NCBI RefSeq assembly: GCF_044324875.1
Contig: NZ_CP172185.1
Length of the DNA stretch: 64,000 bases
DNA from: Escherichia coli
Lineage (GTDB): Bacteria; Pseudomonadota; Gammaproteobacteria; Enterobacterales; Enterobacteriaceae
Reading direction: 5' to 3' (one strand)
A model generated the notes under the pieces. That model saw only the letters and a program-made list of their open reading frames with translations, was not told where the DNA came from and did not search any database. The translations under genes were made by a program, and so were the position numbers. Below, one piece after another: positions 4,740-55,118 of the stretch; within the stretch, counting starts at the first letter, position 1; each line of letters opens with the position of its first letter.

Positions 4740-5111
4740 ATGCGTCTGGAATTTGTTTTGCCTTACCCGCCGCCGGTGAACACTTACTGGCACCGTCGTG
4801 GTGGTAAGTATTTTGTATCAAAAGCGGGGGAACGTTATCGTCGTGATGTCAGGCTTATTGTTCGCCAGCAGCAACTGAGATTAAGGCTGACCGGAAGACT
4901 GGGTATAAAAATCATCGCAGACCCGCCAGACAACCGCCGCCGTGACCTGGACAACATACTGAAAGTACCGCTGGATGCGCTGACCCATGCGGGGCTGCTT
5001 ATTGATGACGAACAGTTTGATGAAATTTATATCGTGCGTGGCGTGTCAGTACCTGACGGGCGTCTGGGAGTGAAGATTTACGAAATTACAGGTGGTAACA
5101 ATGGCGCGTGA
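4740..5111 (+). CDS. rusA: Holliday junction resolvase RusA
   Basis: 123 aa; RusA-like sequence with conserved acidic residues ([16 protein letters not shown]); RBS GGAAGGAGGGGA upstream. Confidence 0.85.
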
Positions 5112-5526
5112 TATTCAGCAGGTTATGGAGCGATGGGGGGCATGGGTGGCGAATAACCACGAAGACGTGGAATGGTCATCCATTGCCGCCGGATTCAAGG
5201 GGCTGATACCGTCAAAAGTAAAATCGCGACCGCAGTGTTCCGATGATGACGCGATGATTATCTGTGGTTGTATGGCTCAACTGAACCGGAACAACAGTGA
5301 TTTGCATGAATTGCTGGTTGATTACTACGTGTGTGGGATGACGCTGATGAAGTTAGCAAGGAAACATGGATGTTCTGATACGCATATTGGAAAGCGTTTG
5401 CAAAAAGCTGAAGGAGTGGTTGATGGCATGTTGATGATGCTGGGAGTAAGACTTGAGATGGATCGGTATGTGAGCGTAAATTATTCGATGTGCCGTAAAA
5501 CTCCGTCCTTCAGGGCAGGGATATAA
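5101..5526 (+). CDS. Late-gene antiterminator Q-like protein
   Basis: About 141 aa, directly upstream of the tRNA/lysis region; N-terminus [15 protein letters not shown] resembles the short Q type of Stx-family lambdoid phages as recalled; Cys-rich. Confidence 0.6.
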
Positions 5527-5536
5527 GGCGTACAGG

Positions 5537-5566
5537 ATAAATAAAAGAACGGGCGCAAAGCGCCCA
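5537..5566 (-). terminator. Rho-independent terminator for the opposite-strand porin gene
   Basis: Hairpin GGGCGCAAAGCGCCC followed on the minus strand by a T-rich run. Confidence 0.55.
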
Positions 5567-5709
5567 AGTATAAACAACAAAAAACGGTAATAAATAACAG
5601 AAAGTCCGTTGGAAAAGTTAAGTACTGTCCAACGTTTTGCAGTGGCATGAGGGCACCACTTTATATGTCAGAAAAGTTTCACTCTCCCGACATATTCTTA
5701 CAAAACAAA

Positions 5710-6813
5710 TCAGAACTGATAAGTCAAACCAACAGCGACAATATCATCGGTTAATACATCAGTTCTTTCAGTGAATTGATTCTTATCAAGCAGGTTGATT
5801 TTATAGTCTACGTATGTAGACATATTTTTGTTGAAGTAATAAGCAGCACCGACTTCAATGAATTTTTCAATGTATCCGTCATTATGTTTTTCAGGGATAC
5901 CAGTTTTGGTGGAAAGGTCTTTGGCTTTCGACTGGATATAAGCAAGAGACGGGCGCAAACCAAAGTCGAACTGATACTGTGCAACTACAGCGAAATCTTC
6001 AGTTTTATTGGCTACACCGTTGTAGCCGCCGGGCGAGTACTTGATTGCGCGGGTATTACGTGTTTCACCATAAGTGGCTGCCAGGTACAGATTATTCGCG
6101 TCATATTTTACGCTGGTAGCCCACTGTTCAGCTTTTTTACCTTTACCAAAAGTCGTCGCTTCCTGTGCATTGGTGCGATCGGCTGCACCATATGCAGCTA
6201 CAAAACCAAAGCCTTCATATTCATAACTGACAGAGCCGCCAACACCGTCGCCGTTTGAAGTGCCTGCATTGTCACGCTCATTTTTACCCAGATACTGAAC
6301 CGCAAAGTTCAGTCCATCAACCAGACCGAAGAAGTCGGTATTACGGTAAGTGGCAACACCACCTACACGACCCACGAAGAAGTTATCCCCGTTAACAGAA
6401 CCAGGCCCAAATTCAGGGAGGACATCAGTATAGCTTAATGCGTCATACACCACGCCATAGTTACGACCATAATCCAGAGAGCCAATATTTTCTAGTTTCA
6501 GGCCAGCGTATGCCAGACGGGTTTTGTCTCCTGCAGAGCCATCTTTTTCTGCCTTGTTGCCTTTGAATTCATATTCCCATTGACCAAAACCAGTTAACTG
6601 ATTGTTGATTTGGGTTTCACCTTTGAATCCAAGACGGGCATAAGTTCCATCACCTTCTTCTTTGGCGTTAGAAGAAAAGTAATGTTTACCCACTACTTTG
6701 CCATATAAATCCAGTTTATTACTGTTTTTATTATATATTTCTGCTGCATTTGCAGACATTGCCAGAAATACTGATGCTGCTACAGCAGAAAGTGCCACTG
6801 TTAAATTTTTCAT
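5710..6813 (-). CDS. Outer membrane porin (OmpC/NmpC family) moron
   Basis: Signal peptide [29 protein letters not shown], porin-type beta-strand composition, C-terminal aromatic residue; same position and orientation as nmpC in DLP12-type prophages. Confidence 0.85.
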
Positions 6814-7411
6814 TTTTTATCCTCTGGTGGGAGTTAATTGGACGACAAAATGCTATCAGGATGAAAATTTAATTTCTGTGTATAATGTATACAAGGAAAA
6901 TTAAGGAGTCCGATTCTTTATATGTGACCACCATCACAAAATAAGAAGTCATGCAAGCTAATAAATAGATGGCTATCTTTCACTCAAAAAATTAAGATCA
7001 ATCTTTTTTATTAGAAGTGCTAAATATATTTAATTATTTGGGGTTGTGAGTTATTTATATAACCTTAATAAAGACATTACTTTTGAAGAAAAATACGTGC
7101 ATAGAAGAATGCATAATCTTTAATTACATCTTGCCAAGCGTCGCAACAATCCAGAGATTGTATGTGGGGTGAATCATGCAGCATGCAGGGTATGAACAAA
7201 CACTTTACGATCGTAAAAGTATGCATATCATGGTAAGAGTGGTTCCTACGCCACACAACTTAAACCCGCAGCCAGGCGGTTTTTTACATCGAAAATCTGC
7301 ACCGGACATTAAGCTCTTTGGCGGACCAGATAAGAGGTGCGCTTAGTTGGGTTTGTCGGGCTTTCTCTGAGATTTGCGGTATTAATCCCGTAACGTTATT
7401 ATGCTGCTCGA

Positions 7412-7487
7412 GGCCCTTTAGCTCAGTGGTGAGAGCGAGCGACTCATAATCGCAAGGGCGCTGGTTCAAATTCAGCAAGGGCCACCA
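7412..7487 (+). tRNA. tRNA with anticodon CAU, ileX/ileZ-like (tRNA-Ile2 reading AUA, or Met)
   Basis: Cloverleaf folds by hand: acceptor GGCCCTT/AAGGGCC, D-arm GCTC..GAGC, anticodon loop CTCATAA, T-arm GCTGG-TTCAAAT-TCAGC, 3' CCA; close to recalled E. coli ileX. Confidence 0.85.
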
Positions 7488-7488
7488 A

Positions 7489-7565
7489 CCGCTACTAGCT
7501 CATCAGGAAAGAGCGTCAACCCTTTAAGTTGAGTGCGCTAGGTTCGATTCCCCGCTGGCGGTCCA
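7489..7565 (+). tRNA. tRNA-like element, probably degenerate (arg-tRNA-like architecture)
   Basis: Acceptor 6/7 bp, good D-arm and perfect anticodon stem, canonical T-loop TTCGATT, but T-stem has 2 mismatches and loop CCTTTAA lacks U33; ends CCA. Confidence 0.35.
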
Positions 7566-7980
7566 GCGCCGACTTACCTCAGTCGGCAGAACAGTTTAGT
7601 TGTAACCATCAGGCCACCACTTCAATTCCGGTAGTCGGCACTAAATTTCCAAGCTCGTGCTCACGGCCTGCTTCATATCCGCGCCAGGTCCGTCGCGATT
7701 AAACCACAGGGCTTTTCAGGAGGGGCCACAGAGAGCGTCACACTGACCATTCCCTGTGGCTTGTGCTGAGATCCGGTCAGTGAAATTGTGCAAAGGGAAT
7801 CTTCGGGAGCTTTGGGCAGAATGTCAGTTATTGATGTTGACATCCTCCACACCCTGAAGGTCGGGGTTTTACGGCGCACTGGATAAAATACCTGAACAAA
7901 CAGCCTCTTCGTGCGGCTTTTTTATAACGAGATTCTGACTTGCTGCCGTCCGTAATGTCGGATGGCGGAGGTGAGGGACT

Positions 7981-8253
7981 ATGAGAATGGACGAACGATA
8001 CAGTAACGCTGCATACGGCAGCGCAGGACTTGTTGCGTTCTTTGCCAGCCTGTCACTGCAGGATTGGGGATTTATTATCGGCGTGGCGTTCAGTATCATT
8101 CTTGGCGTTCTTACTTATCGCCTTAACAAACGGGAGCAGGAAAAACGAACCCGCATATTGCTCGAAATTCTGGAACGAACTAATGCCGGTAATGTTCCGG
8201 CTACGGCACATGCTGTGGCTGAGATTGCGAAAAAGGCACCAAAAGAAATATGA
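7981..8253 (+). CDS. Holin (two predicted transmembrane segments; dual-start MRM motif)
   Basis: 90 aa, hydrophobic stretches LVAFFASLSL and FIIGVAFSIILGVLTY, charged C-terminus; SD GGAGGTGAGGG; immediately upstream of lysis genes. Confidence 0.6.
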   Translation: MRMDERYSNAAYGSAGLVAFFASLSLQDWGFIIGVAFSIILGVLTYRLNKREQEKRTRILLEILERTNAGNVPATAHAVAEIAKKAPKEI

Positions 8254-8409
8254 CGAATATCCCGGGAGTGAGGGGATAATATACCTTTTAACAAAATCCG
8301 GGAACATGAAACGCCCGGAACGTTTCATGAGGCATGCCCCGTGGGGAGCAGGGCATAACTGTGCGGAATAGCTTTCATTGTGATATCAATAATCACGGTA
8401 TTCAAAATA

Positions 8410-8787
8410 TTACGGGCCTGTGGGATCAGGTTGTTTTTTGTCTGATTCCAGAGGGAAGGGACGCTGTTTCGGTTCTCTGAACTTTAGTGATAATGAATTG
8501 AAAATCCTCATTTTTTGCTGCCATGCATAATGTCTGTCCCATGAACAGGGGGGGCTCAATTCTTCATTCACCCATGCGTTAATATCTTGTTTCAGGTGTT
8601 GAAGCATACGGGGTGTTAATGCACTCATAATAATATCCAGCGTTTTATGCGAGAGTTTACCGTAAGGGTCTGCAAGGATGCTGCTCGTTGCTTCGTTATT
8701 ATCCACCATAAGTGGAAGTAGCGCTGATTTAACTTTTTCTGTCATTAGTTGCAAAAATCTACTGCGCAAATTTTCTTTACTGTTCAT
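8410..8787 (-). CDS. Hypothetical protein (125 aa) on opposite strand between holin and endolysin
   Basis: Clean ORF in an otherwise plus-strand late operon; no recognised domain. Confidence 0.45.
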   Translation of the reverse strand: MNSKENLRSRFLQLMTEKVKSALLPLMVDNNEATSSILADPYGKLSHKTLDIIMSALTPRMLQHLKQDINAWVNEELSPPCSWDRHYAWQQKMRIFNSLSLKFREPKQRPFPLESDKKQPDPTGP

Positions 8788-8910
8788 TTCTGAAGCCTCA
8801 TCTGTTGTCGTTTGGTTTTCCTGAACGGGTATGTTTATGAGACATGCTGGTACTGGATTATATACCTGATATATCCAGGATTATAAACCTTTAGATCCTG
8901 ATAAATATAC

Positions 8911-9444
8911 ATGAACGCAAAAATCAGATACGGCCTGTCGGCTGCCGTTCTGGCGCTGATTGGTGCTGGCGCATCTGCTCCTCAGATACTTGATCAGTTT
9001 CTGGACGAAAAAGAGGGTAACCACACAACGGCATACCGCGATGGGTCCGGCATCTGGACCATCTGTCGGGGTGCCACGATGGTGGATGGAAAACCCGTTT
9101 TTCCCGGAATGAAGCTGTCGAAGGAAAAATGCGACCAGGTTAACGCTATTGAACGTGATAAGGCACTGGCATGGGTGGAGCGCAATATTAAAGTACCTCT
9201 GACCGAACCACAGAAAGCGGGTATTGCGTCATTCTGTCCCTATAACATTGGCCCCGGTAAGTGTTTCCCGTCGACGTTTTATAAGCGGCTTAATGCCGGT
9301 GATCGAAAAGGCGCCTGCGAGGCGATTCGCTGGTGGATAAAGGATGGTGGGCGTGACTGCCGTATCCGTTCAAATAACTGCTATGGACAGGTTATTCGTC
9401 GTGACCAGGAAAGCGCATTAGCCTGTTGGGGGATAGATCAGTGA
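8911..9444 (+). CDS. Endolysin, lysozyme with N-terminal signal-anchor-release (SAR) domain
   Basis: 177 aa; N-terminal hydrophobic [16 protein letters not shown]-x8-D-x5-T catalytic spacing ([16 protein letters not shown]). Confidence 0.85.
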
Positions 9445-9908
9445 GCAGAGTCGCCGCGATTATTTATGCTCTGGTTATCTGCATCATCGTCTGCCTGTCG
9501 TTGGCGGTCAATCATTACCGTGATAACGCCATAGCCTACAAAGAACAACGTGATAAAAAAGTCAGTGAGCTGAAGCAGGCGACCGCCACCATCGCTGACA
9601 TGCAGCAGCGTCAGCGTGATGTTGCTGCGCTCGATGCAAAATACACGAAGGAGTTAGCTGATGCGAAAGCTGAAAATGATGCTCTTCGGCGCAAGCTTGA
9701 TAATGGTGGCAGGGTGCTCGTCAAAGGAAAATGCCCTGTGCCATCCTCAGCCGAAACCTCCAGCGCCTCCGGCATGGGCAATGATGCCACCGTCGAACTC
9801 TCTCCAGTTGCTGGACGAAACGTTCTCGGTATCCGGGACGGAATTATCCGCGACCAGACAGCACTGAGAACGCTTCAGGAATACATCAGGACGCAATGCC
9901 TTCGATGA
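9441..9908 (+). CDS. Rz-like inner-membrane spanin (i-spanin)
   Basis: N-terminal TM segment [19 protein letters not shown] then coiled-coil-like region; probable GTG start overlapping endolysin stop. Confidence 0.65.
9661..9867 (+). CDS. Rz1-like outer-membrane lipoprotein spanin (o-spanin), embedded in Rz in +1 frame
   Basis: Lipobox MVAGCSS, proline-rich [11 protein letters not shown]; fully nested within Rz. Confidence 0.6.
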
Positions 9909-54078: not shown

Positions 54079-54510
54079 ATATTCATCCCTGAAATGTATT
54101 AATGAAATAAACGATATTTTACGCGCAATAAATGTTTGCCGCATTAGTTGTTTGAGCGAAAAATATCTGGAAAGCAGATCACAGTACATAAAAAAACCTG
54201 CTGGTGAGGCAGGTTCTTTTATTTACTATTTTCAGGCCCAACACCGCAGCCTGTGCAACATCGTGTTCCAACGAACGAATTATAACCATCGGTGGACCCC
54301 GTTGCAATTAAGATAATGAGATTTATAATCCAGACGGTTGGGACGTTGCGCCGGATCGGACCAATTTTAAGTCCTGGCTACCGGACGGGTGGTGCTGCAG
54401 GTGGTGCCCTGATCCGGAGTGCAACATCGTGGTCCAACATACGTAAACCAGTATCGACAGGCAGTGTAAGGGTAAGGTGCTGGTGTTGCGCTCCTTAATA
54501 AGGAGAGCGA

Positions 54511-54600: not shown

Positions 54601-55118
54601 CGGGCAAATTGAAACGCATCTAAGGGGGAAAACCGCTTCCCCCTTTAATAAAATGATTACTGTTTTTATTAATTCATCATATAACTCATTTTTATTTATA
54701 AATTCATCGATTTTATATTCAACGTACCGTTTAACCGGGATGTGAATATTTATGGTGGGCTATTGGCAAAAAATATCTGGAAAGTAGATCGCAGAAAATA
54801 AAAAAACCTGCTGGTGAGGCAGGTTCTTTTATTTACTACTTTGATGTTAAGTTACTGATAGTGCAACATGGCATCTCAACGAACGAATTATAACCACCTC
54901 TGGACAGTGTTGCAATTAAGATAATGAGATTTATAATCCTGACTGTTGGGAAGTTGCGCCGGATCGAACCCATTTCAAGTCCTGGCTACCGGACGGGTGG
55001 TGCCGCAGGTAGTGCTCTGATCCGGAGTGCAACATGGCGACTCAACATACGTAAACCAGTATCGACAGGCAGCGTAAGGGTAAGGTGCTGGTGTTGCGCT
55101 CCTTAATAAGGAGAGCGG

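Follow-up and report, generated by a model that had tools for sequence, protein, structure and literature searches.

Tandem tRNA-like elements lie between the Q antiterminator gene and the holin gene of a lambdoid prophage in Escherichia coli (assembly GCF_044324875.1, contig NZ_CP172185.1), and the locus raises the question of whether these elements are working tRNA genes and from which genes they descend. The window analyzed here, a stretch of 64,000 nucleotides, contains three such elements, all on the + strand (elements 1, 2, and 3; coordinates in Table 1). A sequence-only reading had described one intact ileX/ileZ-like tRNA followed by two degenerate elements, which it took to be possible decayed rare-codon Arg tRNAs of the kind carried by related phages. 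The three elements were confirmed, and the interpretation given to them was partly supported. With a probability of roughly 0.8, the locus is a degraded lambdoid late-operon tRNA module at ompW that consists of a plausible working tRNA-Ile2, a marginal gene on an argN-type scaffold that is mislabelled tRNA-Lys, a thrU pseudogene and a lost Gly gene. The kind of module is already known; the window copy is a new, decayed member of it.

Detection of the tRNA-like elements

ARAGORN detected two tRNAs in the entire 64-kb window, element 1 (CAT) and element 2 (TTT). The Rfam tRNA family (RF00005) has a gathering score of 29 bits, and a cloverleaf that scored above it was regarded as a member of the family. 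Rfam scores dropped along the cluster from 67.8 to 31.2 to 19.8 bits, with none for a Gly gene, compared to 72.5, 44.4, 73.8, and 64.9 bits for the four genes of an intact relative (L003). The corresponding locus of E. coli LH50-c is 99.7% identical over 7380-7680, its elements 1-3 are identical to those of the window, and the Prokaryotic Genome Annotation Pipeline (PGAP) annotated a tRNA-Ile and a tRNA-Lys there and left the third position without annotation. ARAGORN, Rfam and PGAP called two of the three elements, rather than all of them or none, so the sequence-only reading held on this point, and its positions and properties for the three elements agreed with the sequence, ARAGORN, Rfam and cloverleaf pairing. 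Rfam matches to Plastid-ycf2 on the reverse strand of the tRNAs were far under threshold and were set aside as an artefact of tRNA-like complementarity. An origin of the elements as tRNA fragments left at attachment (att) sites was also rejected, as no integrase is close by and the collinear, full-length homology starts at position 1.

Element 1, a tRNA-Ile2

Element 1 folds canonically with anticodon CAU, as had been proposed from the sequence; 20 of 21 cloverleaf pairs are formed and ARAGORN placed CAT at 7445-7447. The Rfam match was full-length and above the gathering score (67.8 bits, E 1e-12). The proposed likeness to ileZ was borne out by 73 identical positions out of 76 in the ileZ gene of a Stx2a phage and by the PGAP type, tRNA-Ile. 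The CAU anticodon is carried on an Ile2-type body and not on a Met-type body. The base pairs C4-G69 and C5-G68, which act as TilS determinants, are found in element 1. Three positions differ from ileZ, among them C61 to U (T at 7472), which forms a G53.U61 wobble where ileZ and most relatives have the nearly universal G53-C61 pair. The wobble costs about 5 bits (67.8 vs. 72.5 bits for the C61 allele of the relatives). The U61 variant of element 1 is common to LH50-c and ECCNB12-2.

By its sequence and predicted fold, element 1 looks like a working tRNA-Ile2. By analogy with ileZ, it would be co-transcribed with the late genes under Q antitermination and would be excised from the late transcript by host tRNA-processing enzymes. 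Its C34 would then be converted to lysidine by the host TilS, after which the tRNA could read AUA.

Element 3, a thrU relic, and the lost Gly gene

Element 3 has a perfect 7-bp acceptor stem (7568-7574 paired with 7633-7639) and, as had been seen from the sequence, no credible internal arms: 2 of 4 pairs are formed in the D stem, 2 of 5 in the anticodon stem and 3 of 5 in the T stem (14 of 21 cloverleaf pairs overall). In a sensitive local search of 461 nt, Rfam aligned 7568-7640 end to end below threshold (19.8 bits, E 0.15); ARAGORN made no call and no relative that was checked has an annotation at this position. The proposal that element 3 is a decayed Arg tRNA was not upheld. Its identity to argO is at background level (49/77) compared to 61/76 for the host thrU gene (tRNA-Thr UGU), from which it differs by 15 substitutions in 76 positions and no insertions or deletions. 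The homology to thrU is collinear, and the element fills the slot that is occupied in relatives by Thr genes identical to thrU (L003 and PhiR47_1). When searched with blastn, element 3 matched thrU in 5420 of 5426 E. coli genomes (81% identity, E 1e-9). These results establish an origin from thrU, and the relic accounts for an otherwise empty intergenic stretch.

The 15 substitutions spare the acceptor stem. Nine are in the other stems, and eight of the nine are uncompensated, the sole compensated pair being 27-43. Seven of the 15 lie in the anticodon arm, although this enrichment is only marginal. The anticodon TGT is retained, G53 is changed to C and the encoded CCA end is changed to CTA. 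The Rfam score decreased from 73.8 bits in thrU to 19.8 bits, and the cloverleaf (-5.6 kcal/mol) is disfavoured by about 14 kcal/mol relative to a non-tRNA minimum-energy fold (-19.2 kcal/mol). The incomplete D stem, the T stem with C53, the CTA end and the disfavoured cloverleaf are not those of a chargeable, functional tRNA, and element 3 is probably a dead copy of thrU that has lost the cloverleaf fold. Its allele was detected in 19 of 5426 complete E. coli genomes and in two viral contigs and was monomorphic. Searches for partly decayed precursors, keyed to the anticodon, T and D arms, recovered only the identical allele, in two contigs.

The D loop of element 3 is AGTCGGCA, the same sequence as its 3' acceptor strand plus discriminator, which gives an 8-nt direct repeat (7568-7587 and 7633-7640). 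With the 5' acceptor strand, AGTCGGCA in the D loop forms a perfect 7-bp hairpin that is dominant in the predicted fold. Element 3 could therefore have been kept as a structured RNA signal, in which the 5' hairpin (GCCGACU-UACCUC-AGUCGGC) or the acceptor helix guides RNase P or RNase E processing or stabilizes the late transcript. The substitutions A17C and T20C create the hairpin, the fold is better than expected (z = -2.27; 4 of 200 shuffles were as good) and the acceptor stem is unchanged (p = 0.033). These statistics are weak, however, the allele is monomorphic, and T20C is common in phage-borne Thr genes (at least 25 of 117), so only one of the hairpin-making changes is new in element 3. 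The hairpin is not a terminator because it has no trailing T-run. We consider a retained RNA signal extremely improbable.

No tRNA-Gly(UCC) gene was found after element 3, where Rfam gave nothing. The 9-mer TTCCAAGCT sits where tRNA-Gly(UCC) lies in intact clusters, and it may be the last trace, or deletion scar, of the Gly gene. Past this 9-mer seed, 901 of 5000 shuffles and 6.7% of the real-sequence controls matched equally well, so the similarity there lacks significance. A longer remnant of the 3' half of glyT was considered and rejected, as only the 9-mer is solid and 126 of 2000 shuffles equalled the match under strict scoring. The fourth gene of the module (Gly) thus appears to have been lost from the window cluster.

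Element 2, an argN scaffold with a UUU/C33 anticodon arm

The sequence-only reading had given element 2 good D and anticodon arms, a mismatched T stem and an odd anticodon loop, and all of these features were found. The D stem (4/4) and anticodon stem (5/5) are complete, the T stem has 3 of 5 pairs (U50.C64 and A51.C63 are mismatched), the acceptor stem has a C7.C66 mismatch, and the loop, CCUUUAA, has C33 in place of the near-universal U33. The Rfam score of 31.2 bits is only 2.2 bits over the gathering score, and four pairs in the alignment are non-standard. Element 2 was typed as tRNA-Lys(TTT) by ARAGORN and as tRNA-Lys by PGAP (in LH50-c), but it lacks the U33 and the intact T and acceptor stems of a functional tRNA-Lys(UUU). 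Relatives have higher-scoring genes at this position, 44.4 bits for the UUU allele of L003 and 54.5 and 56.7 bits for the Arg(UCU) alleles of L002 and L004. The cloverleaf energies follow the same order: -13.4 kcal/mol for element 2, -22.3 kcal/mol for the L003 UUU allele and -31.5 kcal/mol for the Arg allele. The total folding energy of element 2 was not better than that of shuffled sequence (z = +0.32). Among 35 distinct alleles of the scaffold, only that of the window has defects in two stems. Its private changes (C47, U50, U59, and C66) were detected in one viral contig only, whereas the UUU/C33 anticodon arm was detected in at least 120 viral contigs.

The history of element 2 was evaluated by comparison with L002, which has a near-identical backbone and an intact Arg(UCU) allele. 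Over 1.8 kb (7080-8880), the two sequences differ at 14 positions, 12 of which lie within the 47-bp patch listed in Table 1, indicating that the UUU/C33 anticodon arm and the T arm came by recombination and not by point decay within a resident Arg gene. The proposal of a decayed Arg tRNA was therefore right for the scaffold, which is that of argN (61/77) and carries Arg(UCU) in relatives, and wrong for local decay, since most of the changes fall in the patch and its allele is widespread. Element 2 would thus have gained a common UUU/C33 arm by recombination, after which private mutations would have broken the T and acceptor stems. Element 2 is marginally functional at best, judging from its sequence, and the stem damage and C33 together suggest that it is non-functional. 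Annotators should not count the tRNA-Lys of this cluster as a working tRNA.

A UUU anticodon preceded by a base other than U33 was found on two distinct anticodon stems, TCAAC[CCTTTAA]GTTGA and ACCAT[CATTTAA]GTGGT (L043, L086, and L101 compared to the L003 type). Because two different stems carry this combination, the non-U33 base before UUU may be a selected feature instead of damage.

A highly improbable alternative is that elements 1-3 all function as structurally unusual tRNAs (Ile2, Lys and Thr) to which the host adds CCA. Phage tRNAs tolerate mismatches, the anticodons CAU, UUU and UGU are intact, the acceptor stems are intact save for the one mismatch in element 2, and PGAP labels element 2 as tRNA-Lys. 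The structural states of elements 2 and 3 argue against such a set of working tRNAs: C33, three broken stem pairs and shuffle-level folding energy in the former, and in the latter a score of 19.8 bits compared to 73.8 bits for its parent, 14 of 21 pairs, a strongly disfavoured cloverleaf and the lack of any annotation.

Several observations weigh against a degraded module with one working gene. ATA is used at 7.6 per 1000 codons in prophage and non-prophage open reading frames alike, which does not point to a need for AUA supply. Element 2 still passes three detection methods. The 14 acceptor-stem positions of element 3 are unchanged, which has a probability of 0.033 under random placement, and the element keeps its anticodon and G1-C72, C2-G71, G35, and U36, which we take to be identity positions for threonyl-tRNA synthetase. 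Element 3 is thus slightly more ordered than plain neutral decay predicts. AGA, AGG, GGA, and ACA were commoner in the late open reading frames of the prophage than in the other open reading frames of the window, a comparison set that is not the core genome.

Relation to known tRNA clusters

The order of genes in the intact module is tRNA-Ile2(CAU), the argN-type scaffold, tRNA-Thr(UGU) and tRNA-Gly(UCC), and in L003 the Thr gene matches host thrU, and the Gly gene host glyT, with 100% identity. Viral contigs were sampled via the invariant 3' end of thrU. This four-gene order was the commonest architecture (49 of 111 sampled viral contigs), followed by Thr-Gly alone (37). The sample consists mostly of near-identical E. 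coli prophages, so these counts are not independent events. The four-gene module is annotated in phages PhiR47_1 and vB_EcoM-606R7, and our search of the literature on ileZ/argN/argO and on lambdoid Thr/Gly tRNA clusters found nothing relevant.

Among the closest known systems are the modules annotated as Ile2-Lys-Thr-Gly in PhiR47_1, vB_EcoM-606R7, vB_EcoS-689R5 and the prophage of E. coli AR_0089. The window cluster shares with them the gene order, the 1-3 nt spacing, the types of flanking genes and the UUU/C33 allele at position 2. It differs from them at three positions of gene 1, at five of gene 2 (stem pairs being weakened or broken by three of these changes) and at 15 of gene 3, and it lacks gene 4.

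The ileZ-argN-argO cluster was reportedly first described for phage 933W. In Shiga toxin (Stx) phages such as Stx2a_WGPS8 (AP012540.1), this cluster occupies the same site as that of the window, after Q and ahead of the late and lysis genes. Gene 1 is alike in both (73/76), and gene 2 has the acceptor, D and T scaffold in common (61/77). In contrast, gene 2 of the Stx-phage cluster has the anticodon UCG or UCU and gene 3 is argO (Arg UCU), while the window has a damaged gene with UUU and C33 in the second place and a decayed thrU copy in the third (49/77 to argO). The window cluster also has no downstream stx genes.

The PPompW prophages of Shiga toxin-producing E. coli (e.g., LC567822.1) carry tRNA-Met/Ile2, tRNA-Lys and tRNA-Arg. 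They belong to the same ompW integration site family and have the UUU/C33 allele at position 2, but their third gene is argO-like and their position-2 gene has a 1-nt deletion in the D arm. The host thrU-tyrU-glyT-thrT operon contains the parent of element 3 (thrU) and the parent of the Gly gene of intact clusters (glyT). In phages, the copies of both genes are part of a late operon and only 3 nt separate thrU from glyT, whereas tyrU lies between them in the host operon.

The position-2 scaffold was compared by a structural parse of each allele, since RNAalifold on 23 alleles missed the cloverleaf because of length variation in the D loop and central loop. The scaffold retains its four stems, with compensated changes, while the anticodon loop has 19 different sequences in the 35 alleles and lengths of 5, 6 or 7 nt, many of them 5 or 6 nt (loci with such scaffolds include L031, L059, L080, L030, L035, L092, L113, L061, and L106). 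Stems that are kept while loops vary do not resemble uniform pseudogene decay. ARAGORN reported many of the alleles as tRNA-??? with 2-base anticodons. The scaffold alleles with variable loops have the look of tRNA-like RNAs that do not decode and whose structure is under selection.

Some viral contigs (L018, L021, L024, L067, and L091) hold just a 3' portion of thrU, which starts at about position 32, runs through the CCA end and is fused to unrelated sequence, as would be expected where phages use thrU as their attachment site. In the prophage of E. coli M19 (L013), PGAP left unannotated both a Thr allele that has only G24A, G42T, and T43C and its A32-bearing UUU neighbor, which indicates that annotation pipelines drop mildly altered members of the module.

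A possible role in counter-defence

Two anticodon-stem nucleases act on the tRNAs that elements 2 and 3 resemble. P2 Old is lethal through cleavage of thrU at two paired CNG motifs, C28-U29-G30 and C40-A41-G42. For resistance, a CNG motif must be changed and the 27-43 pair must also be lost; additional thrU gives no protection (PMC12445682). The targets of AriB of the PARIS system are Lys(UUU) and Thr(UGU), in which it cleaves the sequence U36-A-A-U39-C40|A41; substitution of U39 abolishes cleavage (PMC12409363). P2 Old, lately shown to destroy thrU, is classically known for acting against lambda-like phages.

Elements 2 and 3 could be products of an arms race, in which phage genes for Lys(UUU) and Thr(UGU) replaced host tRNAs destroyed by Toprim anticodon-stem nucleases and then shed the cleavage motifs, the window copies being an over-mutated end point that is either dead or an uncleavable RNA or decoy. 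We regard this origin as unlikely. In prophages, the changes G42T/T43C recur on several backgrounds (L012, L013, L052, L065, L080, and L081) in Thr alleles that match thrU elsewhere, and such alleles have G42C/T43C in L094 and G30T in L014. With G42T/T43C, the Old CNG motif is altered and neither 27-43 nor 28-42 can pair, which supplies both factors needed for resistance to Old. Element 3 itself has G42T, T43C, G30T, C28T, and U39C, with 2 of 5 anticodon-stem pairs left, so that both the Old and AriB motifs are gone. The UUU/C33 arm reads U36-A-A-G-U-U, without the AriB site, and a thrU-like Thr gene follows this arm in 107 of 118 sampled contigs.

Much of the damage falls outside the cleavage motifs, however. 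Element 3 has also lost D-stem and T-stem pairs, G53-C61 included, and the encoded CCA, and its most stable predicted fold is not that of a tRNA. The private mutations that break the stems of element 2 are absent from all other UUU/C33 alleles. A decoy should retain the motif that the nuclease recognizes, and the window copies have lost theirs. Of 117 phage-borne Thr copies, most (66) do not differ from thrU and would be non-protective according to the published work (PMC12445682). The enrichment of substitutions in the anticodon arm is only marginal, and the close kinship within the viral sample limits what the allele counts can say.

Nuclease-resistant phage tRNAs are known, namely the coliphage Thr(UGU) variants that rescue Old toxicity and the Lys(UUU) and Thr(UGU) of T5 that bypass PARIS AriB. 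They have the same anticodons as the window copies and changes at the same cleavage-defining positions (CNG 28-30/40-42, the 27-43 pair and U39). The published tRNAs are intact and functional, whereas the window copies have lost other stems.

For lambdoid late-operon tRNA modules as a class, we tentatively raise the possibility, which we hold to be rather unlikely, that their main role is not codon supply but counter-defence against two Toprim anticodon-stem nucleases, P2 Old and PARIS AriB, and that elements 2 and 3 would be burnt-out relics of such a cassette. The proposal draws on the hypervariable loop, exchanged by short recombination patches, of a position-2 scaffold whose acceptor, D and T arms and 5-bp central stem seem to be kept by selection, on the lack of an AriB site in the commonest position-2 allele (UUU, non-U33), and on the repeated gain by adjacent thrU copies of the two-factor changes that confer resistance to Old. 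The scaffold loops of 5 or 6 nt would be unable to decode. The changes of related Thr alleles on the motif cut by Old suggest a history of counter-defence, while the window copies look dead. Copies of thrU are found in many natural lambdoid prophages, and some of the copies have anticodon-stem changes of the Old-resistance type and lie beside a UUU element without the PARIS site. If the proposal is true, a 50-year-old phage-interference phenomenon would be tied to a frequent and mostly overlooked trait of prophages in E. coli.

Prophage context

The tRNA cluster follows Q in the late region and fills the slot of ileZ-argN-argO in Stx phages (Table 1); the neighboring genes were identified by PHROG matches to open reading frames of the window itself. 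The LH50-c prophage terminates at a truncated ompW beside yciE and the trp operon, and this near-identical prophage identifies that of the window as lambdoid and of the PPompW type. A scan for promoters and terminators over 5400-8300 revealed promoter-like sites no more often than in shuffled sequence and no convincing pR' or tR'.

Table 1. Coordinates of the tRNA-like elements and neighboring prophage genes in the window
Feature	Position	Strand	Basis or remarks
tRNA module	7412-7643	+	between Q and holin
Element 1, tRNA-Ile2 (CAU), ileZ-like, putatively functional	7412-7487	+	anticodon 7445-7447; ARAGORN, Rfam, PGAP, identity to ileZ
Element 2, argN-scaffold tRNA-like gene, called tRNA-Lys(UUU), degraded	7489-7565	+	anticodon 7523-7525; C33 at 7522
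Recombination patch within element 2 (anticodon arm, variable loop, T arm)	7509-7555	+	window compared to L002
Element 3, thrU-derived pseudogene (tRNA-Thr UGU)	7568-7643	+	anticodon TGT 7601-7603; alignment, blastn
TTCCAAGCT, 9-mer equal to glyT positions 33-41	7647-7655	+	MAFFT alignment
RusA	4740-5111	+	PHROGs
Q antiterminator, upstream boundary of the late region	5101-5526	+	PHROG 79, E 1.4e-51; Q annotated in relatives
Porin-like moron, separating Q from the tRNA module	5710-6813	-	PHROG 410, E 5e-164
Lysis cassette, downstream of the tRNA module	7981-9908	+	holin, endolysin, Rz spanin
Holin	7981-8253	+	PHROG 1350
Endolysin	8911-9444	+	PHROG 7
Rz spanin	9426-9908	+	PHROG 13

The porin-like moron is an intact open reading frame of 367 amino acids in the window, whereas PGAP recorded the LH50-c copy as a pseudogene interrupted by an internal stop. 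On the - strand, OrzO-P antitoxin RNAs were detected at 54190-54265 and 54800-54873 (Rfam RF02083, 101 and 92 bits); both are full-length, and the pair is a tandem zor-orz type I toxin-antitoxin locus. Just past the prophage tail genes, three consecutive open reading frames of 512, 115, and 126 amino acids lie on the - strand at 38287-40599, a stretch that is absent at the matching place in LH50-c. Their arrangement is reminiscent of an IS66-type element, for which they are a candidate.

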